From Chitinophagaceae bacterium (GTDB lineage Bacteria > Bacteroidota > Bacteroidia > Chitinophagales > Chitinophagaceae): a stretch of 64,000 nt of DNA. The DNA lies in assembly GCA_027489035.1 (NCBI GenBank), contig JAIYAN010000013.1, forward strand, positions 4,141-68,140, written 5' to 3'. Each line of letters starts with the position of its first letter. The stretch's first letter is position 1. The notes under the pieces were generated by a model. The model saw only the letters and a program-made list of their open reading frames with translations. It searched no databases and was not told where the DNA came from. Of this stretch, positions 39,481-57,166 are shown one piece after another. The position numbers were made by a program, and so were the translations under genes.

Positions 39481-39645
39481 TGGAATTGGAATGATTTTAA
39501 GTTAGTTGATTCGAACACAAATAGTAGTAAATAAAAAATACCATAATTTTTAAATATTACAGGAAAAGATATATTTTTGAAGAGGGTGTGTGAGATATAA
39601 ATCTGGCATAAGAGGATTATGGGCAAGTTTGATGACAGACAAAAT

Positions 39646-39707
39646 AGTTGAGACAAGAAAACAACTAAAAAAACAGGGAGCATTCAGAAAATCCAAAAGA
39701 GTAGGAA
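39646..39707 (+). ncRNA. Cassette-leader structured RNA, copy A
   Basis: AGUUG/CAACU hairpin; GGA..UUCA-GAAAA-UCC..G-AGUA-GGAA; 20 nt before ATG 39728. Confidence 0.7.
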
Positions 39708-39727
39708 CAAATTTTTAAAAAAACAAA

Positions 39728-40234
39728 ATGAAAAATTTATTGATTTTAGCAACAATGTTGCTTTCGTTTGGAGCCGTAAATGCTCAAAATCATATTATGA
39801 CATATGATGGTTCATCGTCAGGGGGGAGCGGTTTATTTACAATTGTTGGTAATAACATAATGAGTTATGATGGATCATCTTCAGGGGGTAAAGGTATTTA
39901 CACGATTGTCGGTAATAATATTATGACATATGATGGTTCATCTTCTGGAGGGAGAGGTGTTGCAACTATTAATGGAAATAATATAATGACATATGATGGA
40001 AGTTCTTCAGGTGGAAAGGGAATTGCAACATTTGTAAATAATAATATTATGACTTACGATGGAAGTTCTTCAGGTGGAAAAGGTATAGCCACAAAAGTAA
40101 ATAGCAATTTAATGACTTATGATGGTTCGTCATCTGGCGGAAGGAGAATTTTAACCTTTAAAGATCCATATATGTCCAAGCCAACTTTTGCAGCAATATT
40201 ATTGGCAAAAGGGATTATTTGGAGTGGAAATTAA
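39728..40234 (+). CDS. Secreted tandem-repeat protein (6 x 21-aa IMTYDGSSSGG repeats)
   Basis: Signal peptide ending VNA-Q; repeat period 63 nt with synonymous variation. Confidence 0.85.
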   Translation: MKNLLILATMLLSFGAVNAQNHIMTYDGSSSGGSGLFTIVGNNIMSYDGSSSGGKGIYTIVGNNIMTYDGSSSGGRGVATINGNNIMTYDGSSSGGKGIATFVNNNIMTYDGSSSGGKGIATKVNSNLMTYDGSSSGGRRILTFKDPYMSKPTFAAILLAKGIIWSGN

Positions 40235-40375
40235 ACCAGCCAATAAAACGGGTTTGGCAAAAGTTGCGGTTTATTGCTCCGCAGACACATTTGTGGTTAA
40301 TCAAAGTTTGGTTCTACGCATCAACGTATGTGGTGAAAACCGCCAACTTCTTTTAGCAGCAAACCGTTAACATTC
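40235..40375 (+). mobile_element. attC-like imperfect palindrome 1
   Basis: Starts right after the stop (CAGCCAATAAAA); arms AAGTTGCGGTTT / AAACCGCCAACTT; ends CCGTTAACA. Confidence 0.65.
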
Positions 40376-40388
40376 ATTCATAAAAAAA

Positions 40389-40423
40389 CAGGAGGAAGCC
40401 GAAAATCCTTAATAAGAGTAGGC
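40389..40423 (+). ncRNA. Cassette-leader structured RNA, copy B (pseudoknot domain only)
   Basis: AGGA..GCC-GAAAA-UCCU..G-AGUA-GGC; 26 nt before ATG 40450. Confidence 0.7.
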
Positions 40424-40449
40424 GAAAATTTTAAAAATAAAACAGTATT

Positions 40450-40881
40450 ATGAAAGAAAGTTTTGAAAAACTGGCAGCTGCTATCATCTATTCAGATGGC
40501 GAGGTGGCTCCAAGCGAGTTAAGCCAACTCGAAAAACTGGCTACTGACATAGGTACTGACAAAGCAGCTATGGTAGCTTCCATTGAGGCAGAAATTGAAA
40601 AGCTGAAGCCTATGGATGAAGAAGAATTTCAGCAGTACATGAAAGATGCAGCTTCAGGCATTACAGAGCCTGAGCATCGCTACAAAGCCTTTGATGCGAT
40701 GTTGGAACTTACCTTGGCCGACAATTCTTTGGATGATTTAGAAACCAATGTATTGGGCAATATGTCACAATACTTGGAAATTCCCATTCATTATTTTGCC
40801 AATAATTTGGCTTTTCAAGTCAAGGCAAAAAATGTAGAAATCTTTGCACAAAAAAGTTGGCAAAAACCTGTAGAAATTTAA
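40450..40881 (+). CDS. TerB-like helical protein
   Basis: Two TerB-type half motifs: AIIYSDGEVAPSE and LTLADNSLDDLE. Confidence 0.7.
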   Translation: MKESFEKLAAAIIYSDGEVAPSELSQLEKLATDIGTDKAAMVASIEAEIEKLKPMDEEEFQQYMKDAASGITEPEHRYKAFDAMLELTLADNSLDDLETNVLGNMSQYLEIPIHYFANNLAFQVKAKNVEIFAQKSWQKPVEI

Positions 40882-40893
40882 AAACAAATAAAA

Positions 40894-40924
40894 ACGCGGA
40901 TACCGAAAAGCGAATAGAGTAGGC
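40894..40924 (+). ncRNA. Cassette-leader structured RNA, copy C (pseudoknot domain only)
   Basis: CGC..ACC-GAAAA-GCG..G-AGUA-GGC; 22 nt before ATG 40947. Confidence 0.7.
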
Positions 40925-40946
40925 GTAAAAACTTAAAATCATTAAA

Positions 40947-41150
40947 ATGTCTTTTACAAATATAAAGCTAAAAGGGGGCAAAGTTGGACAAGTATACCAA
41001 ACAATAAATTACTTTTCCGAATCAAAAAACTGCAAATGGTGTGGTAAGGAGATTAAACAACATAAGGCAGTTTTTGAAGCAGATGGTGATGGTTCGAAAC
41101 CATGTTGTGGCATGGCGCATGCGAAGGCATATATGAATGCAAAAATATAA
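40947..41150 (+). CDS. Small putative zinc-binding protein
   Basis: 67 aa; CKWC...CCGMAH ligand set. Confidence 0.6.
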   Translation: MSFTNIKLKGGKVGQVYQTINYFSESKNCKWCGKEIKQHKAVFEADGDGSKPCCGMAHAKAYMNAKI

Positions 41151-41227
41151 TTACAGTCAATTAAGTGCAGGGCGTATATCATAAAATTTATGCCTTGCAT
41201 TTATGTTCAATTAAACAGAGTTTAATA

Positions 41228-41752
41228 ATGACTAAACCAAAAATTAAGAACACGATTGTCGCAATTAGCGAAGGCTTGTTGGGTAAAGCTGTTTTTAACT
41301 CAAAAATCAATATTTCTGAGGCTTATTCAGAGTATATGCTTTATGAGCCTATCGTACTAATAGCAAACAGAAACTGGAATGTTCAAAGTGAAGTCCAACT
41401 GACTTCATTAAAAAGCAAGGGACGGGGCGACAATAAAAAAATTGATTTTGTTTTAACTGATTTGGAGAACAATGACCGTTCTATTGCTTTGGAGGTCAAA
41501 TACATAAAAGGGGTCAAATCAAAAATCAAAATTGATGCAGACATTGAAAAACTATCAGCCTTTAAAACTGAAAAGTCTTCAAAAGATACAAAAGCTTTTT
41601 TGATGATTTTATGGAAAGAACATTCAAATCGCGACAAACATCGAACCCGAATATCACAAATTGGTATAAAGAAGTATTTTGAATGTTCTTTTGAAACAAA
41701 TTTAAAGCAGAAATATGTAGTCACTGTGTTTGAAATATACACGAAACGCTAA
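41228..41752 (+). CDS. PD-(D/E)XK nuclease-fold protein
   Basis: VQSEV..L...KKIDFVL...IALEVK catalytic-motif spacing; ATG 41228 preferred over the upstream alternative start at 41165. Confidence 0.6.
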   Translation: MTKPKIKNTIVAISEGLLGKAVFNSKINISEAYSEYMLYEPIVLIANRNWNVQSEVQLTSLKSKGRGDNKKIDFVLTDLENNDRSIALEVKYIKGVKSKIKIDADIEKLSAFKTEKSSKDTKAFLMILWKEHSNRDKHRTRISQIGIKKYFECSFETNLKQKYVVTVFEIYTKR

Positions 41753-41816
41753 AAGCGTGTAATCGATATTGCCCCTCCCTTTGCGCCATCGCCTACACGC
41801 TAACCGTCATAAGCAA
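41745..41816 (+). mobile_element. attC-like palindrome 2 (short)
   Basis: CGCTAAAA overlaps the stop; GCGTGTA / TACACGC arms; ends CCGTCATAAGCAAT. Confidence 0.5.
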
Positions 41817-41863
41817 TTTTAGAACACCAAAAAACATATAATTAACAAAAGAAAAAGAAAAAT

Positions 41864-42343
41864 ATGAAAAAACGTAAAATAATATTTATAACATTTTTAC
41901 TACTTGTTTTAGGGTTGGTTGTTTATTACTTTTATCCAGAGCAGCATATAAAAGACGGGCAAAAAGCGGATAAAATTGTTGTTAATAAAGCTGCTCACGA
42001 ACTTCTGCTTTATTACAAGGATGAACTTGTTGCTTCTTATTCGGTTTCGCTAAGTAAAAATGGGCTTGGTAAAAAAACAATGAAAGGCGATAACCTCACA
42101 CCTGAGGGTAGTTTTAAAGCAAAAAAAGGACTTAAAACTAAATTCCATAAAGCAATTGGCGTTGGAGAGTGGGAAGATTGTTGCGTCGTTAGAATACACG
42201 GACTCGGAGAACAATTTGGTTGGGTTGGAAAATTCCACCGTTGGGTAGATTTGTCGGAAGGATGTATTGTTCTTACCAATAATGAAATTGATGAAGTGTA
42301 TAAAGCAACAGTAGTAGGCACAAAGATTGAAATCAACCCTTAA
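41864..42343 (+). CDS. L,D-transpeptidase (YkuD) family protein
   Basis: KIVVNKAAHELLLY, GDNLTPEG, IHG...SEGCIVL (His/Cys). Confidence 0.85.
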   Translation: MKKRKIIFITFLLLVLGLVVYYFYPEQHIKDGQKADKIVVNKAAHELLLYYKDELVASYSVSLSKNGLGKKTMKGDNLTPEGSFKAKKGLKTKFHKAIGVGEWEDCCVVRIHGLGEQFGWVGKFHRWVDLSEGCIVLTNNEIDEVYKATVVGTKIEINP

Positions 42344-42362
42344 CAAAACTGATATAATAAAT

Positions 42363-42471
42363 GCTGCCTTTAACAACACAATTACAATAGGCGGCGGTTC
42401 AGTGCTCCGCATCAATATTTGTAGTGAAAATCACCACCTTCGCCTACGCGCTGAACGACGTTATGGGAAAG
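42363..42471 (+). mobile_element. attC-like palindrome 3
   Basis: GCCTTTAAC ... TAGGCGGCGG / CCACCTTCGCCTA ... CGTTATGGG; interior is a shortened version of palindromes 1 and 7. Confidence 0.6.
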
Positions 42472-42527
42472 TTTAAACGTCATAGTGGTTAAAAGCAGGC
42501 TGACCACCTAAAGTGACAAACAAAAAT

Positions 42528-42588
42528 ACTGGAGTCAAGAAAACCACTTTAAAACAGCGAGGATTCCGAAAATCGACAAGAGTAGGAA
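42528..42588 (+). ncRNA. Cassette-leader structured RNA, copy D
   Basis: UGG/CCA hairpin; CGA..UUCC-GAAAA-UCG..G-AGUA-GGAA; 22 nt before ATG 42611. Confidence 0.7.
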
Positions 42589-42610
42589 ACACTTTAAAAT
42601 AAAATAAAAA

Positions 42611-43063
42611 ATGGCACAGGAAATGTATAAACATGATGCATTGCTTCACTTATTGTGGGCAGTTGCAAATGCAGATACTACATCAGATGATCAAAAATAT
42701 GGTGATGCAGTATCCAGTTTAGAAGATGAGTATTATGAAAAGGTTAAAAAGGCAGAAGGAATTGATATTTCCTTTTCAGAAATTGCTGATAAGCGCAAAG
42801 CGTTAAGAAATAGCATTGGATCTGATGGAATCATTAACGAAGCACTGAAGGCTACAAATGGTTGTAGCAAAGAATGGAAAGCGAAAGTAATTGTTTATAT
42901 GATTAAGATGTCTAATAGATCATGGGGCGGTGATTATCTATCGAATGGCGAAAAAATTAATATCTCTGATAGTGAATTTGAAATTATCAAAAAGGCTAGA
43001 AAATACTTAGGTTTAACTGAAGAAGAAGAACAAAAAGGTTGGGACTTAATAAAAGGCTCATAA
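42611..43063 (+). CDS. TerB-like protein
   Basis: LLWAVANAD...LEDE and ISDSEFEIIKKARKYLGL. Confidence 0.6.
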   Translation: MAQEMYKHDALLHLLWAVANADTTSDDQKYGDAVSSLEDEYYEKVKKAEGIDISFSEIADKRKALRNSIGSDGIINEALKATNGCSKEWKAKVIVYMIKMSNRSWGGDYLSNGEKINISDSEFEIIKKARKYLGLTEEEEQKGWDLIKGS

Positions 43064-43193
43064 CAACGCATAAGCAATAGCAGGGCGGAAGTGCTTCATT
43101 GAACTTCTGCCCTTTTTTGTAATTTGTAACTTGTGTTAAGCTTTGGTGCTTTTAAGCCCGCCCATCACAAATCTGCAAACCTTTATGGGCAAG
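43055..43193 (+). mobile_element. attC-like palindrome 4
   Basis: GGCTCATAAC overlaps the stop codon; GGGCGG/GCCC arms; ends CTTTATGGGCAAG. Confidence 0.6.
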
Positions 43194-43257
43194 TTTAAAA
43201 AATAAAAAGGTCTGCGAAACCATAGGGCTGACCACCAAAAGCGACAGAACATAAAAA

Positions 43258-43318
43258 AGTGGAGACCAGAATCCACTCAAAAAAACGGGGCGAAATCCGA
43301 AAAGCTAAACGAGTAGGA
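43258..43318 (+). ncRNA. Cassette-leader structured RNA, copy E
   Basis: AGUGG/CCACU hairpin; GGC..UCC-GAAAA-GCU..G-AGUA-GGA; 18 nt before ATG 43337. Confidence 0.72.
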
Positions 43319-43336
43319 AATAAAAAAAGTAAAAAA

Positions 43337-43588
43337 ATGGCAAACTTCACTTACAAATGTGTTCCTGTTCCTGACGTAATTAATACAGGGAAAACAGGAA
43401 AAGACTTACACTCATACGCTGTAACTTCTTATGAAAAAATTATCAACGATGCTTCCTCGGGCGGTTGGGAACTTGTAAATATTGACACAGTAACTTCTGT
43501 TCAAAGACCAGGTTGTTTAGCAGGTCTATTTGGTGCAAAAGCTCAATCCGTAACGTTTAAACTGTTAGTGTTCAAGAAGACTGTGTAA
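43337..43588 (+). CDS. DUF4177-like small protein
   Basis: True start ATG 43337 (the ORF-track start 43259 reads through the RNA element); FTYKCV...IINDASSGGWELV...LLVFKK. Confidence 0.7.
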   Translation: MANFTYKCVPVPDVINTGKTGKDLHSYAVTSYEKIINDASSGGWELVNIDTVTSVQRPGCLAGLFGAKAQSVTFKLLVFKKTV

Positions 43589-43603
43589 CCAATAAAATTC
43601 TGT

Positions 43604-43629
43604 AAGAAGGAGGGTTCTCCCTCCTTCTT
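43604..43629. terminator. Strong GC-rich hairpin between the DUF4177-like and YidD-like genes
   Basis: AAGAAGGAGGG-TTCT-CCCTCCTTCTT, perfect 11-bp stem, no long U-tract. Confidence 0.55.
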
Positions 43630-43645
43630 ATTAAACAAATGAAGA

Positions 43646-43849
43646 ATGAAAAAAATCCTTATTCTGATTGCACACCTGTATCAAAAAACTGCACCTAAAA
43701 GAATTAGAAACTCTTGTAGATTTGAGCCATCATGTTCGGAGTATATGATTTTGTCATTAAACAAATATGGAGTATGGAAAGGTTTGTCAAAAGGGTTAGG
43801 AAGGTTAAAAAGGTGTAAAATTCCAAATGGAGGAATTGATTATCCTTAA
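43646..43849 (+). CDS. YidD-like (membrane protein insertion efficiency / haemolytic domain) paralogue
   Basis: LYQKTAP..SCRFEPSCSEYMILSLNKYG..GLGRLKRC....GGIDYP. Confidence 0.85.
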   Translation: MKKILILIAHLYQKTAPKRIRNSCRFEPSCSEYMILSLNKYGVWKGLSKGLGRLKRCKIPNGGIDYP

Positions 43850-43976
43850 ATTTTTTGAAATACTGCTACATGCAGTCAAAGTAAAACTTCTAAAGTAATA
43901 ATAAATAAACCGATATTAATAATGTGCAGGCTAAACGGTTCAAAGCATGCTTATCACCTAAAGTAACATACAAAAA

Positions 43977-44037
43977 AGTTGAGACAAGAAAACAACTCAA
44001 AAAACAAGGAGCAATCTGAAAATCCATAAGAGTAAGA
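43977..44037 (+). ncRNA. Cassette-leader structured RNA, copy F
   Basis: AGUUG/CAACU hairpin; GGA..UCU-GAAAA-UCC..G-AGUA-AGA (compensatory UCU/AGA); 20 nt before ATG 44058. Confidence 0.72.
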
Positions 44038-44057
44038 ATAAATTTAAAATCAAAGAA

Positions 44058-44540
44058 ATGAAAAATGTAAAAAGTACTTTGTTATTATCTTATTTATGCC
44101 TGATACTATTATCAAGTTGCAGTGAGAATTACTCAAATGGCGAAAGAATTGGAGTAATAACCCAATTTTCAGAAACAGGTTTAATTTGGAAAAGTTGGGA
44201 AGGTCATTTAAACGTAACTCAAACAGGCATGAATAGTAGTGTACCTTTCGATTTTTCAATTGACAATGATAATCCAGACGAAGAAATAATCAAAAGACTT
44301 GATTCAGCAACTCAATATGGTTGGAAAGTAAAATTAGTTTACCATGAAACTGCTGGTAAAAATTGGTTTAGTAACCGAGGCGAAACAAACCATTTTATTA
44401 CAAAAGTAGAAGTGCTTGAAAAGAATTTTGGAAATGCATTTAACGGAAATCAACAACAGAAAAATTCAGGGAAAGTTATTGATACAATTTATGTAGTTAT
44501 TACTCCCGACAATCCTGATTATAAAAAATTCTTTAAATAA
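44058..44540 (+). CDS. Hypothetical lipoprotein
   Basis: Lipobox LSSC; YSNGERIGVITQFSETGLIWKSWEGHL. Confidence 0.75.
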   Translation: MKNVKSTLLLSYLCLILLSSCSENYSNGERIGVITQFSETGLIWKSWEGHLNVTQTGMNSSVPFDFSIDNDNPDEEIIKRLDSATQYGWKVKLVYHETAGKNWFSNRGETNHFITKVEVLEKNFGNAFNGNQQQKNSGKVIDTIYVVITPDNPDYKKFFK

Positions 44541-44747
44541 AAAATGATAAAAAACGCTCAATAAAATTCGTTACAAGAAATTGGCTGTTCGGTACTTTTT
44601 ATGATCATTTTTTGTTTAACAAACATTCATTCTTCGTAAGAATATACAAGTGATGATGAATAAGTTTTAATTCAGATAAAAAAATAAACGAGTCACCAAG
44701 CGAAAAATTTTCCTACTTAAGTTTTTTTAATATATTTATAAAAAATA

Positions 44748-44806
44748 AGTGGAGTCCAGAAACCACTTTAAAAACGGGGCGAAACCGAAAAGCCTTAAGA
44801 GTAGGA
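44748..44806 (+). ncRNA. Cassette-leader structured RNA, copy G
   Basis: AGUGG/CCACU; GGC..ACC-GAAAA-GCC..G-AGUA-GGA; 18 nt before ATG 44825. Confidence 0.72.
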
Positions 44807-44824
44807 AAATAAAAAATTAATAAA

Positions 44825-44938
44825 ATGGCAAAATCACAAACAAAAAGCGTAACAGGTTCTAAAACCACTACAAAAACAGTTACAAAAGCAGGAAAGGCAG
44901 ATAAGCGCACTAAACTAGGTGGTGCAAAGAAGAAATAA
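44825..44938 (+). CDS. 37-aa Lys/Thr-rich basic peptide
   Basis: Manual translation MAKSQTKSVTGSKTTTKTVTKAGKADKRTKLGGAKKK; sits at the standard distance behind RNA copy G. Confidence 0.6.
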   Translation: MAKSQTKSVTGSKTTTKTVTKAGKADKRTKLGGAKKK

Positions 44939-44958
44939 ATGAAATCAGCAAATTTCAA

Positions 44959-45017
44959 AGTGGAGTCCAGAAACCACTCAAAAAACGGGGCGAAACCGAA
45001 AAGCCTTAAGAGTAGGA
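44959..45017 (+). ncRNA. Cassette-leader structured RNA, copy H
   Basis: Near-identical to copy G; 18 nt before ATG 45036. Confidence 0.72.
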
Positions 45018-45035
45018 AAACAAAATTTTTATAAA

Positions 45036-45668
45036 ATGAAAAAATCAAGAATTATTATCCTCGTTATCCTAATCATTATTGTTGCTATTGGTTATTGCTA
45101 TTTACTTTACAAAACATGGAATATTTTTGGCTTCTGGACATTGATGTGTACTGCTTTAATTTCAATTATTTCAACGTCCTTTCTTGGTAATTTAGTTGGT
45201 TCCAGGACTGAAAACAATGGAGTAATTATGTATAATCCAAAAGAATGGCCCAAATTTTTAAATATGTTGGTTTCACTTGCAATTGGCTATTATTTATTTA
45301 CAAAAATTGATAATCCAAGCATCTCAAGTTATGACTATATATTTGGATTAACATATCTTATACTGTTATCATTAATACCAATATTAATTTCCATTTTTAA
45401 ATTAATTAGAGACCGAAACGATTATATTTCAATAGATGGTGATAGTTTAAAGTACAAGGATAATGATGAAACAGGTGAATTTAAATTTGCAGATATCGCA
45501 ACTGCTGAAATATCTAATGGAATTAAACTAAACTTTAAAGATGATACAACATTGACGATAAAAACAGGCAACATGAATTTTAACGCAAAAGATTTATCAA
45601 ATGCATTTAGTGACATCGTAGCAAGACTACCGGAGGTTAAAATGGAAGATACATCAAATTCAAATTAA
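45036..45668 (+). CDS. Hypothetical membrane protein with a C-terminal PH-like beta domain
   Basis: Four hydrophobic segments followed by RNDYISIDGDSLKYKD. Confidence 0.7.
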   Translation: MKKSRIIILVILIIIVAIGYCYLLYKTWNIFGFWTLMCTALISIISTSFLGNLVGSRTENNGVIMYNPKEWPKFLNMLVSLAIGYYLFTKIDNPSISSYDYIFGLTYLILLSLIPILISIFKLIRDRNDYISIDGDSLKYKDNDETGEFKFADIATAEISNGIKLNFKDDTTLTIKTGNMNFNAKDLSNAFSDIVARLPEVKMEDTSNSN

Positions 45669-45806
45669 TAAATTCAAAAGGCGTTTGATAACTCAATATT
45701 TTTCCAAATATAGAATCAAGAAAAAAATTGTATAAAAATTATTTTTTAAAAAAGGAGTATTCTAAAATTACAAATAAATAAAAAACAGTAAATTAAAATT
45801 AATAAA

Positions 45807-46211
45807 ATGGCAAGAGAAATAACAACAACAGGATCTAAAAAAGTATCTACGTTAATGAAAGAGTTTAACGAACATTTTCCATATTTACGCTTGAGACTTT
45901 ATAATCCTGAGGTAAAAAAAGCGATTTCTGAAGGTGTTAAATCTCTCACGGAGTTTAGAGTTGATATTGAAAAAACGTTATCTGAGGTTCGTACAAAAAA
46001 AGGTGCTGGAACTGCTTCATTTACAGGAAGTAAAAACGTAGGAACAGTCGAAAAAGAGTTTGAAAATATTTTTGGGTTATTTGCTCAAATTTGTTTTACA
46101 AGTGCTGATGGTGGAATGTTTGCTTCTACGGGGGCGGATGACAAGAAATCATTAACTGAATTAAACAGAGAAAAAGCTGCGGCAGGTTGTTTGAAAGATC
46201 AATGGAAATAA
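45807..46211 (+). CDS. Hypothetical protein with two internally similar halves
   Basis: TGSKKVSTLMKEFNEHFPYL vs TGSKNVGTVEKEFENIFGL. Confidence 0.7.
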   Translation: MAREITTTGSKKVSTLMKEFNEHFPYLRLRLYNPEVKKAISEGVKSLTEFRVDIEKTLSEVRTKKGAGTASFTGSKNVGTVEKEFENIFGLFAQICFTSADGGMFASTGADDKKSLTELNREKAAAGCLKDQWK

Positions 46212-46215
46212 CAAT

Positions 46216-46320
46216 ATTGTAACATCGTATTAGCAATATTAGGGCAAAAGTACTTCATTGAACTTTTGCCCTTTTTTTATTTGTTCTAGTTAAAAACTTT
46301 GGTATTTTTAAAAAATGTAA
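46216..46320 (+). mobile_element. attC-like palindrome 5 (degenerate)
   Basis: Shares AGGGC..AAGT.CTTCATTGAACTT.TGCCCTTTTT with palindrome 4. Confidence 0.5.
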
Positions 46321-46406
46321 TAGTCAATATTCAGTGCTTTAAAGGATATTGAATAAAAGAAAATAATTTTCTTAAACAAATAATACTAATAATTAAATTT
46401 ACATTA

Positions 46407-47159
46407 ATGAAAAAGAGTATAAAAAACAACACAAATGATAAGTATAAGTCACATTTAATCGACAAAAACATCTTTTGGGGTTTACCATTTACCTTTTTTG
46501 CTTTCTTTTTGATTGTAATTTTATCTATTAATCAATCTACTTCAATAGATTCATCTGGAGCAGAAGTTGTACAAAACACAGCTTTTTTTGCTTTGTATAA
46601 AGTTCTTTTATCTTCAGGCTTTTCGATGCTTCTCATTGGTTTTGTTTTAAATTCTACAAGTGTTTTACCCATAGATATTTATGAAAAAAACAATTCATCA
46701 TACCTTTTCACCAATCATACCTTTATTATAATTATTAAAATTATTATTATAATTATCGGTTTGATTTTATTTGTTTTATCATCCATGTTTGAACCTGGAA
46801 GTAAAACACCATTATCGTTCTGGGATTTTTTTTTCATTTCTATTTGTATTCTTTTTACTATGTATTTTATTAAGAAACTAATTCAAAATAGAGGCGATTA
46901 CGTATTAATTGAAAATGAGAAATTAGCATGGTTTGATGATAAAAATAATGCTGTTAATGAAATCAAATTTTCTGAAATCAAATCATACAAAAAAATTTTA
47001 GAAAATACATCTAGGTCTCCTCAAATTGTAGGTATTTTAATTGTTTCAACTTTTGAGAAAGAGTTAAAAATAGATTTTGGAAACATGAGTCTCATACCTC
47101 AAAGTGGGTTTATTTTTAATGTGATTTTAGAAAAAATTCCACAAGCATATATTGATTAA
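46407..47159 (+). CDS. Hypothetical membrane protein
   Basis: Four TM segments; C-terminal RGDYVLIENEKL domain resembles that of 45036..45668. Confidence 0.65.
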   Translation: MKKSIKNNTNDKYKSHLIDKNIFWGLPFTFFAFFLIVILSINQSTSIDSSGAEVVQNTAFFALYKVLLSSGFSMLLIGFVLNSTSVLPIDIYEKNNSSYLFTNHTFIIIIKIIIIIIGLILFVLSSMFEPGSKTPLSFWDFFFISICILFTMYFIKKLIQNRGDYVLIENEKLAWFDDKNNAVNEIKFSEIKSYKKILENTSRSPQIVGILIVSTFEKELKIDFGNMSLIPQSGFIFNVILEKIPQAYID

Positions 47160-48936: not shown

Positions 48937-48972
48937 TTAATCATCTTCATTATTTTTGAATCCATTTAGCTG

Positions 48973-49554: not shown

Positions 49555-49569
49555 AAATAAATAAAAATC

Positions 49570-50202
49570 ATGCAAAAATTAGCTGTAAAAATAGGGATAT
49601 TCGCATTGATACTTACCATTCTTGGAGGTGTAGGTTATTATGTGAGCGTTAAAATGAATTTACTACCTAATGCTTTTGAGGAGAAGAAAGCATACATTTC
49701 AGAAACGCCTACCATGGTTAAAGAAATCAAAAGTATTGCTGAGCTATATTCGGTTTGTTACTATGATCAGCTTTATGTTGATTCAGTAAGAAAGGAGATT
49801 AAAACCACAGATGCCGTAATTAATTTTTTTGGAGGCAATAGCACAACAAACACGAAACTAGGATTGATTACAACCGCTAAGGTGTTTGCGGGATTTGACC
49901 TTAGTAAGTTGGACTCTACAGATATTTCGGTAATGGACAGCACTTTAACCATTAAATTACCAGCACCTCAAATAATCGATATAGTGATGAATCCATCAGA
50001 TGTAATCACATTTATTGAAGAAGGCAAATGGTCTATGGATGAAGTTAAAATGGTAAAGAATAAAGCGATCTCAATGTTCAGAAAGAGGGCTTTAAACAAA
50101 GGAATATTGGTCGATGCTGAGAAAAAAGGTAAGGAAAGCATCGAACTTTTCTTTAAATCTCTAGGATTTAAAAATGTGATTGTTGAACAGAAAAACAGCT
50201 AA
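49570..50202 (+). CDS. DUF4230-family membrane-anchored protein
   Basis: EIKSIAEL...KVFAGFDLSKL...IKLPAPQI...AEKKGKESIELFFKSLGF. Confidence 0.8.
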   Translation: MQKLAVKIGIFALILTILGGVGYYVSVKMNLLPNAFEEKKAYISETPTMVKEIKSIAELYSVCYYDQLYVDSVRKEIKTTDAVINFFGGNSTTNTKLGLITTAKVFAGFDLSKLDSTDISVMDSTLTIKLPAPQIIDIVMNPSDVITFIEEGKWSMDEVKMVKNKAISMFRKRALNKGILVDAEKKGKESIELFFKSLGFKNVIVEQKNS

Positions 50203-50281
50203 GAATTTATTACTTAAATGCTTCTTGTCAAATCGTCAATAGAACAATAGAAAATAGGAACTGCATAGTCTAAATTTTAGT

Positions 50282-51142
50282 ATGAATAACGCGTATAAAT
50301 TATCTGGAAAATCCGGCAATATTTTTATATTAGGATTATTAATTGGACCAATTTTAATAACACTTTTATGTATTATATATTCTTATATAGATGTTTATAA
50401 TCCTTTTGTTTATTTTACTCTTTTAGTATTTATTGGACTTTTGTTTGGTATTATATTAATACAGAAGTTAGTAATTAGATTATCTAAGTGTAGAAATGTA
50501 ACTAGTTCAATAATTTATGGACTTGTCGTTGGCATTTTTGGTATTTATGCAAATTGGTGTTCTTTTCTTTATGTTATGTTAAGCAAAAATAATTTCCCTA
50601 TTGATTTAACAGAATTAATGCTTAACCCATCTATGATTTATGAAATAACAAATGCATTATCGGAAGAAGGTTACTATGACGTATTTGGTTTTACTGTAAA
50701 AGGTGGTTTTTTATGGTTTGTATGGATAGTTGAAGCAATAGGAATTCTTGGCGCAGGTGCGCTTGGTGGTTTATTGGTGTTGCACGAAGAAGTTTATTGT
50801 GAAGATTGCAATAGATGGGCAGAAGATTTAAATTTTGATTTGCGATTAGCTATTGAAAATAAAGACCTGTCAAAACAGATAATTGAATCAAACATAATTA
50901 AAATTTTAGATTTCCCAATTTACGAAGGAGAAAATTCAGAACATATCAGGGTTAATTTGCATCAATGTTCCAAATGTCAAAGCACATCAACAATTGATGT
51001 TGACTTAATGACTTATGAAACTAATGATAAGGGAGAGATAAAAGAAAATAATGAAGATTTTAGTGAAATTTATATTTTAAATAACAGCCAATTGAAAAAA
51101 TTTACAAACAAAAAAAACGGAACAGCTCAACAATTTGTTTAA
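50282..51142 (+). CDS. Membrane protein with a C-terminal zinc-ribbon
   Basis: Four or five TM segments; CEDC...CSKC. Confidence 0.65.
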   Translation: MNNAYKLSGKSGNIFILGLLIGPILITLLCIIYSYIDVYNPFVYFTLLVFIGLLFGIILIQKLVIRLSKCRNVTSSIIYGLVVGIFGIYANWCSFLYVMLSKNNFPIDLTELMLNPSMIYEITNALSEEGYYDVFGFTVKGGFLWFVWIVEAIGILGAGALGGLLVLHEEVYCEDCNRWAEDLNFDLRLAIENKDLSKQIIESNIIKILDFPIYEGENSEHIRVNLHQCSKCQSTSTIDVDLMTYETNDKGEIKENNEDFSEIYILNNSQLKKFTNKKNGTAQQFV

Positions 51143-51425
51143 TCGATATATTCCCGCCGCAGAGCTTTAATTGTAATTTTTATCTACTTGTTCCATAAAA
51201 AATCGGAATTCTAACGACCAACCCCATCAATAAAATTTTATCGTAAAAGAATTATTTTTAAAAAGATCTACCAGATTGGATTTCGAGGATATAAGCGTCA
51301 AATCAAATTTTTTAAAAACATAGACAAACTGATTAATTGAGATTGGATAAGGGTTGGGTAGTCGATGCTAGCTTTGTATAGGATATTTGATTTTAATCAA
51401 CAAAATGCACTTCTTTTATTTCCTT

Positions 51426-51950
51426 TTAAATCTTAAACGTGAAAACTGTAATTTGTCCATTAGTGAACGTTACCGCGAACTCGCATTTCTTGTCATTGTT
51501 ATTTTTAAAGTACCAGGTTTCAATATGTGTGCTGTCTCCTAAAAAATAATCATCCCAAATCTCATCCGGCTTGGATGATATATAAGCAGGGATTTGATTT
51601 TGCAGATCATCTATTATTTTAGCAATTGAAGGGATGCCAGACATCTCTTTCATTTTACCATTTTCTTGTAGAAATAACACTCCGCTGAATCTTGGTAGTT
51701 GTGTAATTTTAATGATAACGCTATCTTGATTACGCTTAATTATATCCATCATCTTTCCCCTAAAATTTCCGTGATTGGTGCTTACCTCATAAGGTCGTAA
51801 GTCTTCATCAGATAAAATTTCTTTTACGGCATCGGCAATAACTTTGTTGTTATATTTTTCTATAGAATCTTTTTCAGCTTGTGTGATTTGAGAAATTCCA
51901 GTAAAAGAAATAATCGAAGTCAATAATAAAAAGGAGAATATCTTTTTCAT
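51426..51950 (-). CDS. Hypothetical secreted protein
   Basis: Signal peptide (GIS-Q). Confidence 0.6.
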   Translation of the reverse strand: MKKIFSFLLLTSIISFTGISQITQAEKDSIEKYNNKVIADAVKEILSDEDLRPYEVSTNHGNFRGKMMDIIKRNQDSVIIKITQLPRFSGVLFLQENGKMKEMSGIPSIAKIIDDLQNQIPAYISSKPDEIWDDYFLGDSTHIETWYFKNNNDKKCEFAVTFTNGQITVFTFKI

Positions 51951-52079
51951 ACGTTTAAATTTTGATTTACGATTTAAATATAAAATCCGATATTTTCAAC
52001 ATCCACTAAGTTGCCATAAATTTTAATCTTTCATGTAACCTGTATCAAACTGATCTCTTTTGTTGTGTCTATTTATCTT

Positions 52080-52568
52080 TTAAAAATCTCTACTTCCGTT
52101 TAATACATTTAAGATTACCCAAGAGCCCTCTATGGTCCAAGTATAATAAATAAAAGGCGCTTTTTTAGGATTTTTTTCCTTGCCCATAAACTGTTTTCTT
52201 TCCAGATTAACTATATTATCTTTCATTGATTTTGTATCTGAGGGATCTGCAATTGTAAATTTGTAGATTTGATGATGATACTTAAAATTCTTCCACTCAA
52301 GATCTTTCTGTTTTCTATTAAAATCTGAAATTGTTTTCAATTTAATAGGTTTAACACCTTGGTTATACTCATCCATTGGGTAAAATACATATTTAGGTGA
52401 ATTGTTGTTAGCTTTCCCGGTTTGTATTTCTTCTATGGTTAGATCCGTTACTATGGGTGATGTCATAAAAGAAATGATCTTTTTTTCTATTAAAGAATCT
52501 TTAGGGGTTTGAGCATGTAGAATTAATGCCGATAATAAAATGATGGGGATGAAGATTATTTTTTTCAT
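52080..52568 (-). CDS. Hypothetical secreted protein
   Basis: Signal peptide (LHA-Q). Confidence 0.6.
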   Translation of the reverse strand: MKKIIFIPIILLSALILHAQTPKDSLIEKKIISFMTSPIVTDLTIEEIQTGKANNNSPKYVFYPMDEYNQGVKPIKLKTISDFNRKQKDLEWKNFKYHHQIYKFTIADPSDTKSMKDNIVNLERKQFMGKEKNPKKAPFIYYTWTIEGSWVILNVLNGSRDF

Positions 52569-52965
52569 AATTTTTGTTTTTAATAAAATAAAAAATCTGA
52601 TGAGTAAAAAAATACAATAATCAAAGAAGATTTAATTTTTGAAGCATAGATATTTATTTAGGTTTGAAAAAATGGAACGAATAATTTGAATATTTTTTAT
52701 GACTACTACTATATACACAGGTATTGCATCATAAAGCTCATCAACATCTTTTCTTCTTAAAGAAATACAACCTTTAGTCCAATTGAATAATTTGACTTGT
52801 GAAAATCTATTGAATACTAAATTAAAATTTGTCAGTGGATAAAAAATAATAAACGTCGTAATTAACAAAACAATAAAATCATTCTGTATTTTATTCTGAG
52901 TTTGAAAATTACATTTGTATTGGTTGATGGATAATTTCATTTTTTAAAATTTTAAATTTATTAGT

Positions 52966-53322
52966 ATGAAAAAGACAATCTTATCAATTTTAATTTTAGC
53001 CGGATTAAACCCCGCATTTTCCCAGACAAATGAGCAGGTTACCACTTTTCTATCAGACAGAACAATGCCATTCAATAAAGGTGTTAAAGCAGAGGAGGTT
53101 AATAATATTGATAGTGTAATTAGATCTTGCAGTAAGAGAAATATTAGTTGCTCCCACGATATCTTCACTTTGTATGGAACATCATTCGCTCCCGCTCAAG
53201 TAATAGGAGGTTATAGCCAAACAATAATCAAAGATAAAAAACTGCCTTTTGTTAAGTATACCTTTTATAATAAAAATGGTAACACGATTATTGAGGTCGT
53301 TAGTGGTAGTGATTCATTATAG
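52966..53322 (+). CDS. Hypothetical secreted protein
   Basis: Signal peptide (AFS-Q). Confidence 0.55.
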   Translation: MKKTILSILILAGLNPAFSQTNEQVTTFLSDRTMPFNKGVKAEEVNNIDSVIRSCSKRNISCSHDIFTLYGTSFAPAQVIGGYSQTIIKDKKLPFVKYTFYNKNGNTIIEVVSGSDSL

Positions 53323-53545
53323 ATTTTCGAGAATGGGATTTAAAACTTCTATCATTTTGCCTACATATAAAATTGTTAAAACCTAAGATAGTTTCTCCAA
53401 TAAAAACACTTTTAACAAACCCTTGTCAATAAACGTCTTTAATTTTCCAAGGTTCGTAATTGTTTCGTGAAACGTTAATTCGTTTATGCAACACCGTTAC
53501 CATTCAATTTAATTAGTGTTTTATCATAACCGTAAATTTTATTAA

Positions 53546-54376
53546 ATGAAAATTATTTTTTTTACTTTTTCACTATTTATGACAGCCTTTAATTGTATTG
53601 GGCAGAATGTTGAAAACTTAACGCTTCAATATGGATTTAATCGATTCAAAATTGAGAAAAAATATAAGTTGATTATTGATAGTGTTATTGATGGAAAGTC
53701 ATTTCAGGAAATTAATATTGAAGCCCATTGTGATTTTGTTGGAACCATGGATTACAATGATTCATTGTCATTAAAAAGAGCAATGGAAGTAAAAAATTAT
53801 TTGATCTCAAAGAACATTAATGAAAACGTAATAAAAGTATTTGCTCGAGGTAAAAGAATTCCATTGGTTGAAAATACAGATGATATTTCGCGTGCTAAAA
53901 ACAGAAGGGCCGAAATTCAATTTACTTTAAAACCCGCCGAAACTACACAGTATATTGACACGATTGATAAAGTTGTCATTGATAGCTTAGACTTAAACAA
54001 CTTGGAAGTTGGGGCTACATTCCGGTTGGAAAACATTAATTTTTATGGCGGTAAACATTTATTTCTAGAAAGTTCAATGAACGCTCTAGATAATTTATAT
54101 TATTCGTTAAACGCCTATCCACATCTGGAAATTGAAATACAAGGCTACATTTGTTGTTCCAATAATGGCGAGGATGGAGTGGATCTTGGAACAGGAACAC
54201 CGAATTTGTCGGAGAATAGGGCGAAAGCTGTATACGACTTTTTAATTCAAATGGGAATTAGTCCCCAAAGGCTTAGTTATAAAGGATATGGATCGTCAAA
54301 AAAATTAGTTGAAGAAGTTACGGAGAATGACAGAATAACAAATCGAAGGGTTGAGATAAAAATTTTAAAAAAATAA
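53546..54376 (+). CDS. Protein with two OmpA-like peptidoglycan-binding domains
   Basis: LSLKRAMEVKNYL...KNRRAEI and LSENRAKAVYDFL...TNRRVEI. Confidence 0.9.
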   Translation: MKIIFFTFSLFMTAFNCIGQNVENLTLQYGFNRFKIEKKYKLIIDSVIDGKSFQEINIEAHCDFVGTMDYNDSLSLKRAMEVKNYLISKNINENVIKVFARGKRIPLVENTDDISRAKNRRAEIQFTLKPAETTQYIDTIDKVVIDSLDLNNLEVGATFRLENINFYGGKHLFLESSMNALDNLYYSLNAYPHLEIEIQGYICCSNNGEDGVDLGTGTPNLSENRAKAVYDFLIQMGISPQRLSYKGYGSSKKLVEEVTENDRITNRRVEIKILKK

Positions 54377-54502
54377 AAAGCCCGTTAAGGTATCTAATAA
54401 CAATTATTTCCACCATTAATAAAACTAAAAGTTATATTTTTAAAAAGTCTTTGTGAGAATGGATTTATAGTGTAAGTGCGCCAAATCAAAATTTTTAAAA
54501 AC

Positions 54503-55087
54503 ATGTACATACAGAAGAAGTTTGTATTAGCATTGACAGTATTTGGAATTATTCTTTCAGTATTTTTAAGCAGTTGTAAAAAGGAAGTTGAATGCCCTGG
54601 TTTACCTTATCAAATGGAAGGGTATTTCCCATCAGTCAATGAGTTGAAGTTTAGCAATGGGATTGGCGACACTTTGCTTTTACCTGTTGACAATTATTCT
54701 CGCTCTATTCCGCGCACCTTGTCTAATAACCCTTTAAGCGTTGGTGGAACTGGAGCGAAGCCGTTTTGTATAGAGACTCTCGAAGCATGGTCTTCGATGA
54801 ATATTCCAGTTTATTGGTCTTTTAAATTTGCTGTTTCGGAAGATGCTAAAACTACAGAAATCAATTTTACAATTACTGAAGCATTTATATCTACGAACAG
54901 TTTTAACAAGGTAGTAAATGAAACGCCGAGCACATTAGGCGATTACAAAGTATTTGGAGATACGTTAGTTATGTCTGCGATTCAGCCGCCTGTGGCAAGA
55001 TTTAGTGAGGCTCAAATTGTTTATGGTCAGGGATTGGTGAAGTTGCACGATGTGGTGAATAATTGCGATTGGACAAGAGTTTGGTAG
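54503..55087 (+). CDS. Hypothetical lipoprotein
   Basis: Lipobox LSSC; ATG 54503 preferred. Confidence 0.65.
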   Translation: MYIQKKFVLALTVFGIILSVFLSSCKKEVECPGLPYQMEGYFPSVNELKFSNGIGDTLLLPVDNYSRSIPRTLSNNPLSVGGTGAKPFCIETLEAWSSMNIPVYWSFKFAVSEDAKTTEINFTITEAFISTNSFNKVVNETPSTLGDYKVFGDTLVMSAIQPPVARFSEAQIVYGQGLVKLHDVVNNCDWTRVW

Positions 55088-55338
55088 TCGATCCTGGCTT
55101 TTGTAAAGCGAAAAAATAATGTATGGTCAGGAGTTGGAAAAATCTTTAGAAATAGAAAAGTTAATGCGTCAACAGAAACCATTTCATTAATCGATTAAAA
55201 ATAAATAAAAAAAAATAACCCGAAACAGATTTTGCTTTCAACATCGTCTATCAGGATTTAAATGATGGGAAATGTGTAGATAAGAGAAATTAACTGCGGG
55301 TATAAGGGAGTTATGCCCAATTTTAGAAAAATAGAACC

Positions 55339-56139
55339 ATGAAAATATTTACTGTAGATACTTTTACAAACAAACCTTTTACAGGAAACCAAGCTGGAGT
55401 TTGTATTCTTGATAAAGACATAGATGATAGTTTAATGTTACAAATTGCTAAAGAACTAAATTATTCAGAGACAGCATTTGCTTTACCACTAGAAGAAAAT
55501 TTTAATAAGTTTAATTTGAGATGGTTTACCCCAAAACAAGAAGTAGATTTATGTGGACACGCAACATTAGCAACTTCTAGAGTACTTTACGAAATTGGAT
55601 TAGTAAATAAAAATCTTTCTATAGATTTTGAAACAAGAAGCGGTGTACTGGTAACTAATATTTCAGGGGAAAAAATTATAATGAACTTCCCATCAAGGCA
55701 AGTAAATCAAAGCAATGCAGACGAAATCATTATTAAATTTACACAAGCAAACCCAGTCTTTGTAGGGATTGATGAAAATTGGTGCTTGGTGGAGCTAGAG
55801 AATGAAAAAGCAGTAAAATCAATAACTCCTGATTTTGAATTATTAAAAACGCATAGGCAAAAGGTTTTTACAATTACAGCTAAATCTGATAATCCAGCGT
55901 TTGATTTTGTTTCTCGATGTTTTGGTCCAGCGGTTGGGATAAATGAAGATCCAGTTACAGGATCAGCACATTGTTATTTGACTCCATATTGGGCAGACAA
56001 GCTAAGGAAGAAAAAATTAACAGGCTTTCAAGCTTCAGAGAGGACAGGGAAAATAGAGTGTGAATTAATTGAAAACGGAAGAGTACTTTTGACTGGGGAA
56101 AGTTTAATAATGTGTGAAATAAAACAAAACTGGGCATAA
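55339..56139 (+). CDS. PhzF-family isomerase
   Basis: VDTFTNKPFTGNQAGV, NYSETAF, EVDLCGHATLA, EDPVTGSAHC. Confidence 0.93.
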   Translation: MKIFTVDTFTNKPFTGNQAGVCILDKDIDDSLMLQIAKELNYSETAFALPLEENFNKFNLRWFTPKQEVDLCGHATLATSRVLYEIGLVNKNLSIDFETRSGVLVTNISGEKIIMNFPSRQVNQSNADEIIIKFTQANPVFVGIDENWCLVELENEKAVKSITPDFELLKTHRQKVFTITAKSDNPAFDFVSRCFGPAVGINEDPVTGSAHCYLTPYWADKLRKKKLTGFQASERTGKIECELIENGRVLLTGESLIMCEIKQNWA

Positions 56140-56270
56140 CAGGCGTTTGGTTCAATGGCGGGTGCAGTGGTTAATTGAACATTGTACCTCGCATCAACTT
56201 TCCTTGTATATTGACAGTATAATTATCCAAAATCCCCACTGCGCCAAGCAAGGGAACGCTGGCTGCAACC
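56131..56270 (+). mobile_element. attC-like palindrome 6
   Basis: TGGGCATAAC overlaps the phzF stop; TTGG..GGCGGGTGCAG / CCCCACTGCGCCAA arms; ends GCTGGCTGCAACC. Confidence 0.65.
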
Positions 56271-56337
56271 TTAATTGATCTCCAGTCCTAAAATAGGTTG
56301 ACCAAATCAATCAAAGACTATAAAGTAATTAAACTTT

Positions 56338-56994
56338 ATGATTAAAATGACCAAAAAAATCATACTATTTCTCTCAATCTTAACTAGTTTTAGTTGTGAA
56401 ATATATGCTCAAAATTATTATTTGGGTTATAACTATGGATTTAGTTGGAATGGAGTAAAGAGTAATGGAAATCCAATCGGTACATCACAAAATAATTTTT
56501 GTACTGGATTAATTTTTGAAGTTATTACAAAAAAGAAACTACGTTTAGGTGCAGAGATTTTGTATGAAAAGCGAGGTTTCAATCTTGGCTATGCAGTTAT
56601 TTTTAACAACTTTGATGAACGATTCTTAACAAATTACCACTACCAGAACTATTTATCAATTCCCCTGAAGATTGGCTATCAGACAGGAAATAAAATTTAT
56701 GGCTATGGCGACATTGGGTTAGCTCCAGCATTTAATTTAAAGTCCACTTTTAAGTATCCTAAAATAGACAGCTCATCTAATATTATTGGTGAAATAACAG
56801 AGAATGAACAATTAGAAATAAGACCTTTTGATCTTAGTGCTTTAATAGATTTTGGAGTTGGATACAACTTAACAGAAAAAATTTCGATTTTAAGTTCAAT
56901 AAGAATACAAAAAAGTTTATTTGAGTTCTCAAAAGATTATCAAATGTCCCATAAGGCTACAACCCTATTTTTGTCTTTAAGATATAAGTTATGA
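56338..56994 (+). CDS. Outer-membrane beta-barrel (porin/PorT-like) protein
   Basis: Signal peptide; EILYEKRGF, YLSIPLKIGY, C-terminal LRYKL. Confidence 0.8.
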   Translation: MIKMTKKIILFLSILTSFSCEIYAQNYYLGYNYGFSWNGVKSNGNPIGTSQNNFCTGLIFEVITKKKLRLGAEILYEKRGFNLGYAVIFNNFDERFLTNYHYQNYLSIPLKIGYQTGNKIYGYGDIGLAPAFNLKSTFKYPKIDSSSNIIGEITENEQLEIRPFDLSALIDFGVGYNLTEKISILSSIRIQKSLFEFSKDYQMSHKATTLFLSLRYKL

Positions 56995-57027
56995 AAATGA
57001 ATTTATAGAGATAAGAATGATATAAAA

Positions 57028-57166
57028 GGTAGCAGCCAACACATTTACAATTGGCGGGGTTTTATGCTCTGAAGACAATTTTGTGGTAGCCAAAAGTTTA
57101 GTTCTCAACATCAATATTTGTGCTAAAAAATCCGCCCATCGCAAATCTGAAAACCGTTAAAGCCAA
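57028..57166 (+). mobile_element. attC-like palindrome 7
   Basis: GGTAGCAGCCAAC ... TTGGCGGGGTTT / AATCCGCCCATCGCAA ... CCGTTAAAGCC; interior homologous to palindrome 1. Confidence 0.65.

Follow-up and report, generated by a model that had tools for sequence, protein, structure and literature searches.

What assembled the run of short, mostly unrelated genes and imperfect palindromes lying between about 39.6 and 57.2 kb of a 64,000-nucleotide stretch of the Chitinophagaceae contig JAIYAN010000013.1 (this whole stretch is called the window, and positions are counted within it)? Here we report that the interval 39,617-57,156 is very probably a partly decayed array of mobile gene cassettes, without a recombinase nearby, and that it belongs to an integron-like gene-capture system widespread in Bacteroidota. 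A first-pass annotation of the window had described an integrase-less cassette array of the integron type. That description gains from covariation within the sites, permutation of the cassettes, linkage to a recombinase in other genomes and a break between two near-identical strains, and it has to be amended in that the linked enzyme is not a canonical integron integrase (IntI).

Folding of single elements proved unconvincing, and comparative covariation was therefore used instead. A first covariance model (R1) drew on four sites in the window and four in a Bacteroidales locus, L028; with it the same element was found in many other loci, in co-oriented arrays across Bacteroidota and with site lengths of 70-190 nt. 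A second model (R2) was built from 67 sites, all from genomes other than that of the window, and was used to scan both strands of the full 64 kb without filtering. The scan returned exactly six matches at E <= 0.008 (starting at 40239, 41745, 42366, 43056, 56132 and 57032), all on the + strand and just 3' of genes, while the next best match had E >= 1. Six of the seven palindromes of the first-pass annotation were recovered in this way, with the orientation and the position behind genes that it had given them; the seventh, at 46216, is a truncated remnant, and a more decayed element that had been suspected at 44556-44702 gave no signal with the site models. The homology it had noted among the palindrome interiors is borne out by the repeat families D5, D8, D12 and D16 and by alignment A1.

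Each site contains a stem of ~20 bp that holds its pairing under a varying sequence and covaries across 65 nt. When 15 long-range pairs are scored in the 67 non-window sites, 90.4% of stem cells are paired, against 53% in shuffles and 31-40% in slid controls, these counts coming from model-fitted alignments that are biased towards structure, though the margin is large. Compensatory changes occur in all 15 of the 15 stem pairs, with a covariation score of 0.78 versus 0.17. Judged from these aligned sites, the structure is shown to be under selection. Mismatches inside the stem, read on the top strand, are A.C in 40 cases and G.T in 3, spread over at least 12 loci; a top-strand excess of A.C turns into G.T wobble if the bottom strand is the folded one, as it is in integrons, and favours the bottom strand as the one that would fold. 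An asymmetric loop, whose two sides have 1-3 and 5 or 6 unpaired nt, adjoins the R box of 9 bp (GCCCATAAC/GTTATGGGC), and the site interiors are conserved across orders. The cores read TAAC or CAAC and GTTA or GTTG in ~85% of sites, and the strict form RYYYAAC/GTTRRRY is followed only in part.

If strands are exchanged in or beside GTT, the bases that follow GTTA in one site belong to the next cassette, and they pair with that cassette's own left box. Over 55 adjacent pairs of sites, the left box matches the post-GTTA bases of the previous site at a mean of 4.49 of 5 positions, compared with 2.44 for its own site and 2.06 for random sites. The match to the previous site is perfect (5/5) in 42 of the 55 pairs, and the previous site is favoured in 44 of 48 informative pairs (p = 1.5e-9). 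Chains of complementarity are perfect throughout in L042, L112, L019 and L056, and the fourth core base obeys the same rule, TAAC going with GTTA and CAAC with GTTG. Within the window the left boxes score 4, 3, 3, 3, 5 and 5 of 5 against the previous site and ~1 against their own; the start of the PhzF cassette at 55310, GTTATGCCCA, matches TGGGCATAAC at 56131, and the start of the outer-membrane protein (OMP) cassette, GCTGGCTGC, matches GCAGCCAAC at 57032. By these comparisons the crossover is shown to lie in or next to GTT and the cassettes to be circular permutations, as the integron mechanism predicts.

Differences between genomes point the same way. Loci L111 and L112 share 99.7% identity over 3.5 kb and are wholly unrelated right after CCGTTGTGTG of a site, one that R2 later called independently; on this comparison the pair is a case of cassette-level variation between near-identical strains. 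In addition, one gene (69% DNA identity) is a cassette in two unrelated arrays, placed just after a site in each (L019 4167-5085 and L086 10916-11834).

The enzyme that would move such cassettes is found in other genomes. A pattern derived from DUF805 RNA, an RNA motif discussed below, gave 40 loci from diverse metagenome-assembled genomes of Bacteroidota. A complete element is present in L028, where a tyrosine recombinase gene is followed, after ~70 nt, by the insertion site attI (..ATATAAACAAG^TTATGGGCAAGTT, the caret here and below marking the crossover) and then by cassettes that each end in a 135-nt site. The motif past this attI, TTATGGGCAAGTT, is the one present at window positions 39617, 42461 and 43183 (the three window copies of TTATGGGMAAGTTTRA), and in L028 it follows GTT at sites as well as at attI. 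An alignment of 12 members of the recombinase family then yielded 80 metagenomic loci by protein homology alone, in which R2 found 59 sites, 56 of them on the recombinase strand. By position, 56 sites lie downstream of the recombinase (53 co-oriented with it) and 3 upstream, despite twice as much upstream sequence; per kb, sites are ~40 times denser downstream. Sites are carried by 15 of the 20 loci with at least 2 kb of downstream sequence, and 35 of the 80 recombinase contigs end less than 500 bp past the gene, a pattern to be expected of assemblies broken at repeats.

In at least 14 loci the junction with the first cassette lies 65-105 nt past the recombinase stop codon, at an attI of the form ATATAA[AG][CT]NAG^TT[AG]. 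It can be read as GnnCATAT-AAACAAG-TTAnnnnC, a dif-like layout of arm, spacer and arm; ahead of it lie an inverted repeat and a direct copy, whose variable part changes from locus to locus. In L028, L042, L043 and L055 the first cassette has a left box complementary to the attI junction. The longest context is that of L042, a 4.1-Mb contig with the recombinase, attI and at least nine cassettes, and the simplest that of L043, the cultured Sunxiuqinia elliptica (SNWV01000017), in which the recombinase and attI are followed by a single cassette (a cyclic nucleotide-binding (cNMP-binding) protein and a small multidrug resistance (SMR) transporter) whose left box complements the attI junction at 10 of 10 positions. 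As far as gene order and complementarity can tell, these loci show a platform in the order recombinase, attI, array, with a cassette content that varies between strains at the sites.

The linked recombinase is ~385 aa long and is one of a large family whose members carry the annotation XerD or site-specific integrase; its catalytic R-K-H-R-H-Y residues are invariant in the 12-member alignment. Its best solved relatives, by sequence and by fold, are the archaeal XerA (4a8e) and the integron integrase VchIntIA (2a3v), and by these measures its relatedness to IntI and to Xer/XerA is about the same. The alignment with XerA runs continuously from end to end, while that with 2a3v falls into two pieces, with 26 residues where IntI has 68, so that ~40 aa of the IntI-specific insertion are missing. 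Both IntI1 insertions are likewise missing in a multiple alignment, which is a lead only. Scores against the NCBIfam models are 197.7 bits for XerA/integron-integrase NF040815 (cutoff 220), 185.7 bits for integrase_gron TIGR02249 (cutoff 265) and 161.8 bits for XerD (cutoff 329.6). The enzyme also has an extra N-terminal alpha/beta domain of ~80 aa (predicted model, mean local confidence score pLDDT ~80), for which there was no significant match in the PDB, the best being the YciH/SUI1 fold at E = 0.027.

On these alignments the linked recombinase is not an IntI, and is without the I2 or additional domain. That domain was found necessary for IntI activity by Messier and Roy (2001), as cited in PMC4889954, and I2 has been seen as the innovation that permits recombination of single-stranded attC; XerC nonetheless recombines the folded single strand of CTX phage without I2 (PMC7790495). 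With I2 absent, a score below the TIGR02249 cutoff and an enzyme co-oriented with its cassettes, to call the window a CALIN (a cluster of attC sites that has no integron integrase) of an integron is to say how it works, not that its membership is proven. Integron membership fails on the defining feature of the integrase, and the cassette-array reading is right as to the working.

We propose that a cassette consists of TTA plus ~5 variable nt, an optional leader (often DUF805 or DUF805b), 1-3 small open reading frames (ORFs) and a terminal recombination site of 70-140 nt. The site would be made up of a left box nnnnn[T/C]AAC, often laid over the stop codon, a ~20-bp imperfect stem, a variable centre, an A-rich loop (AAAAC/AAACC) and the G of GTT. 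A complete element, as seen in other genomes, comprises in one orientation the ~385-aa tyrosine recombinase, a dif-like attI (GnnCATAT-AAACAAG^TTAnnnnn) and the array. By analogy with integrons and with Xer-dependent integration of CTX phage, the recombinase would excise cassettes as circles by recombination of site with site and insert them at attI, probably recognising the folded hairpin, most likely that of the bottom strand. The window array is probably mostly a fossil, mobilisable in trans at best. To a wider proposal we give even chances: that Bacteroidota and at least some Ignavibacteria own a widespread integron-type platform, in which an Xer/IntI-like recombinase would act on folded hairpins without I2, maybe with the N-terminal domain in its place, the platform being either ancestral-like or an independent invention, and DUF805 serving as a mobile expression leader.

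The window itself has the look of a Bacteroidota chromosome, with a guanine-plus-cytosine content of ~32%, a type IX secretion system (T9SS) sorting domain, SusC-like TonB receptors and Bacteroidetes-specific DUF805 RNAs. The genes rho and katG and then a 182-aa gene precede the array region, in which short + strand genes lie at 39.6-46.3 kb and 55.3-57.2 kb. The majority of these have no Pfam match; those that do are TerB, YkuD, DUF4177, YidD, PhzF and an OMP beta-barrel. Its features, from left to right, are as follows.

39575-39616, + strand: possible decayed attI-like edge GGGTGTGTGAGATATAAATctggcataagagga, only loosely like the attI core ..GGTGTACATATAAAC.AG^TTA of L042 and L049
39614-39632, + strand: first junction gA^TTATGGGCAAGTTTGA, where cassette 1 begins, its core being ATT instead of GTT; 4/5 positions complementary to the site 1 left box
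39617-40366, + strand: cassette 1, with a DUF805 leader, gene 39728-40234 and site 1
39642-39711, + strand: DUF805 RNA, leader of the cassette 1 gene (Rfam RF03081, 59.6 bits, above gathering score)
40239-40375, + strand: site 1, left box GCCAATAA(AAC), right end AAACC-GTTAACA (R2, E = 3e-10)
40367-41806, + strand: cassette 2, with TerB-like gene 40450-40881 (Pfam TerB), a 67-aa gene, a 174-aa gene and the short site 2
40389-40424, + strand: DUF805b RNA, 5' of the TerB-like gene 40450-40881 (Rfam RF02914, 45.7 bits)
40893-40925, + strand: DUF805b RNA, 5' of gene 40947-41150 (Rfam RF02914, 42.5 bits)
41745-41815, + strand: site 2, a short form (71 nt) whose cores are mutated (TAAA.., GTC) (R2, E = 0.006)
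41807-42460, + strand: cassette 3, with YkuD L,D-transpeptidase-like gene 41864-42343 (Pfam YkuD, 5e-13) and site 3
42366-42469, + strand: site 3, 104 nt long, with left box GCCTTTAAC and right end GACG-TTATGGGAA (R2, E = 0.008)
42461-43182, + strand: cassette 4, with a DUF805 leader, 150-aa gene 42611-43063 and site 4
42524-42592, + strand: DUF805 RNA, leader of gene 42611-43063 (Rfam, 53.3 bits)
43056-43191, + strand: site 4, left box GCTCATAAC with stop codon, core TTT for GTT, central intrinsic terminator with T run (R2, E = 3e-12)
43183-46298, + strand: six small genes, DUF4177, YidD-like, lipoprotein, 37-aa, 210-aa and 134-aa (Pfam)
43254-43323, 43973-44043, 44744-44811 and 44955-45022, + strand: four DUF805 leaders (Rfam)
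46215-46298, + strand: site remnant, left box ..TGTAAC and interior with terminator, right arm and core lost (R1, E = 0.03)
55310-55319, + strand: orphan junction G^TTATGCCCA, start of the PhzF cassette, with no recognisable site before it; all 10 nt are reverse-complementary to the site 6 left box TGGGCATAAC (56131)
55311-56258, + strand: PhzF-family cassette, with gene 55339-56139 (Pfam PhzC-PhzF, 5e-64) and site 6
56132-56267, + strand: site 6, left box GGGCATAAC with stop codon, core GCT for GTT (R2, E = 8e-17)
56259-57156, + strand: last cassette, with outer-membrane beta-barrel gene 56338-56994 (Pfam OMP_b-brl_2) and site 7
57032-57165, + strand: site 7, with which the array ends 3', with left box GCAGCCAAC and right end AAACC-GTTAAAG (R2, E = 3e-11)

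Four sites are grouped in 3 kb (40239-43191) and another two in 1 kb (56132-57165), which would make the window a CALIN if the sites are taken as equivalents of attC. Left ends read nnnnnTAAC, the stop codon falling within ATAAC at 43061, 46209 and 56137, and right ends read ..AACC-GTTA.. or a mutated form of it (GTC at 41806, TTT at 43182, GCT at 56258, ATT at 39614), in agreement with the ageing array that the earlier reading had envisaged. Short forms like site 2 occur elsewhere (L035:1536, L013:3894), and the interior of site 6 is nearly identical, in alignment, to that of L028:4681. The start of the last cassette, (G)CTGGCTGC, complements the left box of site 7 at 5/5 positions. At the remnant, R2 matches the interior alone (E = 4.6), which has 79% identity to site 4 over 71 nt (family D12); between the six genes of 43183-46298, R1 and R2 found no intact sites. 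The match between 55310 and 56131 has a chance of ~0.015 for that box; a generic scan, for GTTA plus 6 nt with its complement upstream of TAAC, yields ~12 pairs by chance on each strand, and we retained just the one pair that ends in 56132, a site called independently.

No tyrosine recombinase was found among the 30 larger ORFs of the window, or by tblastn of its 64 kb with the linked recombinase, in line with the suggestion of the first-pass annotation that the enzyme lies elsewhere in the genome or has been lost. The source sample's own contigs break inside site 1 (40248-40333, with several variant short contigs of differing depths) and at the duplicated DUF805 leaders (44780-45010). Breaks with variant copies at site 1 point to more copies of this site family in the source sample. 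Among public runs, the sole one containing the entire array is a freshwater metagenome. Contigs from public runs were considered as evidence of excision and left unused, being short and having their joints in low-complexity sequence.

Several observations weigh against our reading of the window and its relatives. A stretch of ~9 kb, 46.3-55.3 kb, has no sites and includes minus-strand genes, so that the array is not continuous over the span 39617-57166 first given to it, although the ends of that span hold. Mutated cores occur in 4 of the 7 window elements. Whole-element z-scores for the minimum free energy (MFE) are weak, from 0 to -3 on either strand and barely better than shuffles; the bottom-strand fold, which had been put forward as a check, gives z = -3.2 for site 2, and in site 1 the long-range hairpin is present in the MFE fold of both strands. 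The sites might also be callable as ordinary attC, and the structural bias of the pair counts, mentioned above, belongs here too. Among the recombinase-linked loci, L051 (3547-7623) has three downstream sites on the opposite strand, L056 (5333-19838) has co-oriented sites on both sides of the recombinase, and some family members adjoin mobilisable elements (L043), so that not every homologue need serve an array.

The same recombinase and cassettes could be at work on sites that are ordinary double-stranded cores, as with Xer/dif and the pdif of Acinetobacter, the palindrome serving termination or transcript stability. An enzyme without the I2 helix, which is held to be the innovation behind recognition of single-stranded attC (PMC7790495), would suit such duplex sites, as would an attI resembling a normal arm-spacer-arm core and the true terminator found in the centre of two window sites and of L017. 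What this account leaves unexplained is the covariation, across 65 nt, of a ~20-bp stem that is free to drift in sequence. Moreover, a left box can pair with its cassette's own 5' end only if the DNA is folded or circular, the preponderance of A.C over G.T (40 to 3) speaks for folding of bottom-strand DNA and against an RNA or top-strand structure, and XerC already handles the folded single strand of CTX phage with no I2. We therefore regard purely duplex sites as unlikely, and continue to favour recombination of cassettes at folded hairpins.

It is much less likely still that the window is an ordinary integron CALIN, in which plain attC sites are served by a canonical I2-bearing IntI elsewhere in the genome and the Xer-like neighbour of the related arrays is incidental. 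The AAC and GTT cores, the orientation to the ORFs, the size range and the permutation are all exactly attC-like; yet no protein reaching the integron-integrase threshold was found in ~120 loci, the junction within ~100 nt of the Xer-like gene complements the first left box in four loci, and the ~40-fold downstream site density is found beside that same gene. Surveys, too, find essentially no integrons in Bacteroidetes: that of IntegronFinder 2.0 lists only In0 elements and one complete integron, in Salinibacter (PMC9024848), and a 2024 preprint counts Bacteroidota among the integron-free clades (10.1101/2024.07.02.601686). Least credible of all are non-mobile intergenic repeats, whether palindromes of the repetitive extragenic (REP) or miniature inverted-repeat transposable element (MITE) kind or structures of 3' untranslated regions or terminators, although the elements are indeed intergenic, palindromic and repeated, some have terminators and the window z-scores are modest. 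The two ends of a REP or MITE should complement each other, whereas here the match of a site's own ends is near random (2.44 vs 2.06) and that to the previous site is 4.49; all significant copies in a locus are on one strand, a recombinase is linked to the elements, the core is where near-identical strains part, and most sites have no T run.

Among known systems, the cassette arrays proposed here are closest in working to integrons, including CALINs and sedentary chromosomal integrons such as those with the Vibrio cholerae repeats (VCRs) of Vibrio. They share cassettes that are co-oriented, poor in promoters, of unknown function and mostly limited to a single gene; imperfect palindromic sites of 57-140 nt in which structure is conserved over sequence, with AAC...GTT cores and a G^TT crossover; an attI by the recombinase gene; orphan arrays; and long sites that, like VCRs, are homogeneous within a lineage. 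They differ in an enzyme without I2, below the model cutoff, with an extra N-terminal domain and placed co-oriented and directly upstream of attI, and also in the 9-bp R box with its loops, in interiors conserved across orders and in the many cassettes with their own DUF805 leader. Integrons with an inverted integrase, for example in Treponema denticola (cited in PMC4889954), have a bona fide IntI with the additional domain, and the present family does not.

Other parallels are found in the action of Xer on folded single-stranded DNA (CTX phage and the integrative mobile elements exploiting Xer, IMEX) and in pdif modules. These have in common with our system an Xer-type enzyme without I2 and, in the phage case, a hairpin that mimics dif, and attI here is itself dif-like. 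They rely, however, on the host XerC/D and the chromosomal dif, carry whole phages or inverted-dif modules, and are without a dedicated recombinase-attI platform that stacks permuted cassettes. The DUF1874 motif, proposed by Weinberg et al. as an unusual attC (PMC5737381), is similar in that it is structured, recurs from one intergenic region to the next without an integrase seen nearby, and is suspected of acting as single-stranded DNA; it is a different, multistem motif, unmatched here, and no evidence of permutation or of a recombinase was given for it. The palindromes had also been likened to the Flavo-1 RNA of Flavobacteria. This likeness did not hold: with the threshold relaxed to E <= 5, Rfam still returns no hit to Flavo-1 anywhere in the window, palindromes included, and in 20 related site-rich loci there is none at gathering score.

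We found no published description of this Bacteroidota cassette system in a full-text literature search that was incomplete. Taxon-specific attC models have no Bacteroidota class, and detection anchored on IntI probably misses the whole class of elements. If our reading is true, a large and unrecognised route of gene exchange exists in bacteria common in the freshwater, marine and sediment samples where the loci were found, and it would offer a natural experiment on the recognition of hairpin sites without I2, as well as a genomic context for the orphan Rfam motif DUF805. The cultured S. elliptica, with its SMR-type efflux cassette beside a mobilisable element, opens the system to experiment. 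In that genome (L043, 1-12400) the platform lies directly beside genes for a relaxase, a MobC-like protein and a primase, and the recombinase-attI platform may ride on a mobilisable element.

The DUF805 and DUF805b motifs (RF03081 and RF02914; Weinberg et al. 2017) match the leaders in the window and differ from the palindromes. Above gathering score, Rfam finds six DUF805 and two DUF805b in the window, all on the + strand and each just 5' of a small gene. In the arrays DUF805 starts 55-100 nt past the crossover, always behind GTTATGGGCAAGTTWAA. About one third of the loci fetched with DUF805 hold sites, and the RNA is absent from most of the arrays fetched with the recombinase, on which ground we rejected it as a part of the recombination site and see it as an optional leader carried by cassettes. 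No report of this cassette-leader context was found in the literature searched. A second kind of leader, of ~25 nt, is common to cassette 5' ends in many loci (among them L029:1300, L043:12397, L056:5473 and L028:5717), where the sequence just 3' of the R box, from the crossover on, reads GTTRnnnnCAAKnnTAAAAAGACAG; its role could lie in accessory binding or in signalling expression.

A few further features of the sites and genes were noted. A rho-independent terminator (GGGCGGAAGT...ACTTCTGCCC and a T run) is nested in the centre of sites at 43087-43120, at 46241-46277 and in L017:1409-1538, and sites of this kind may also end the transcripts of their cassettes. Within the window such a terminator is present only in the centres of 43056 and 46215, the other sites having no T run, and termination would be no more than an extra function of some sites. 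In L049 the sequence past the last site (GTTGTACGTAATGCGAGC) is also that of the first-cassette start at attI (4530-4550, 7589-7615), which could reflect a duplicated cassette or a circular or collapsed contig. The gene at 39728-40234 has five tandem repeats of 63 nt (21 aa) at 39788-40165 and a weak Pfam match to Bflower_3. The segment 51255-51375 resembles an internally deleted copy, with the start and the end, of the gene 54476-55087 (54438-55101; families D10 and D17). Finally, a short minus-strand ORF at 52632-52940 has a weak match to the C-terminal part of YkuD, and may represent a fragment paralogous to the YkuD gene of cassette 3 (41864-42343).

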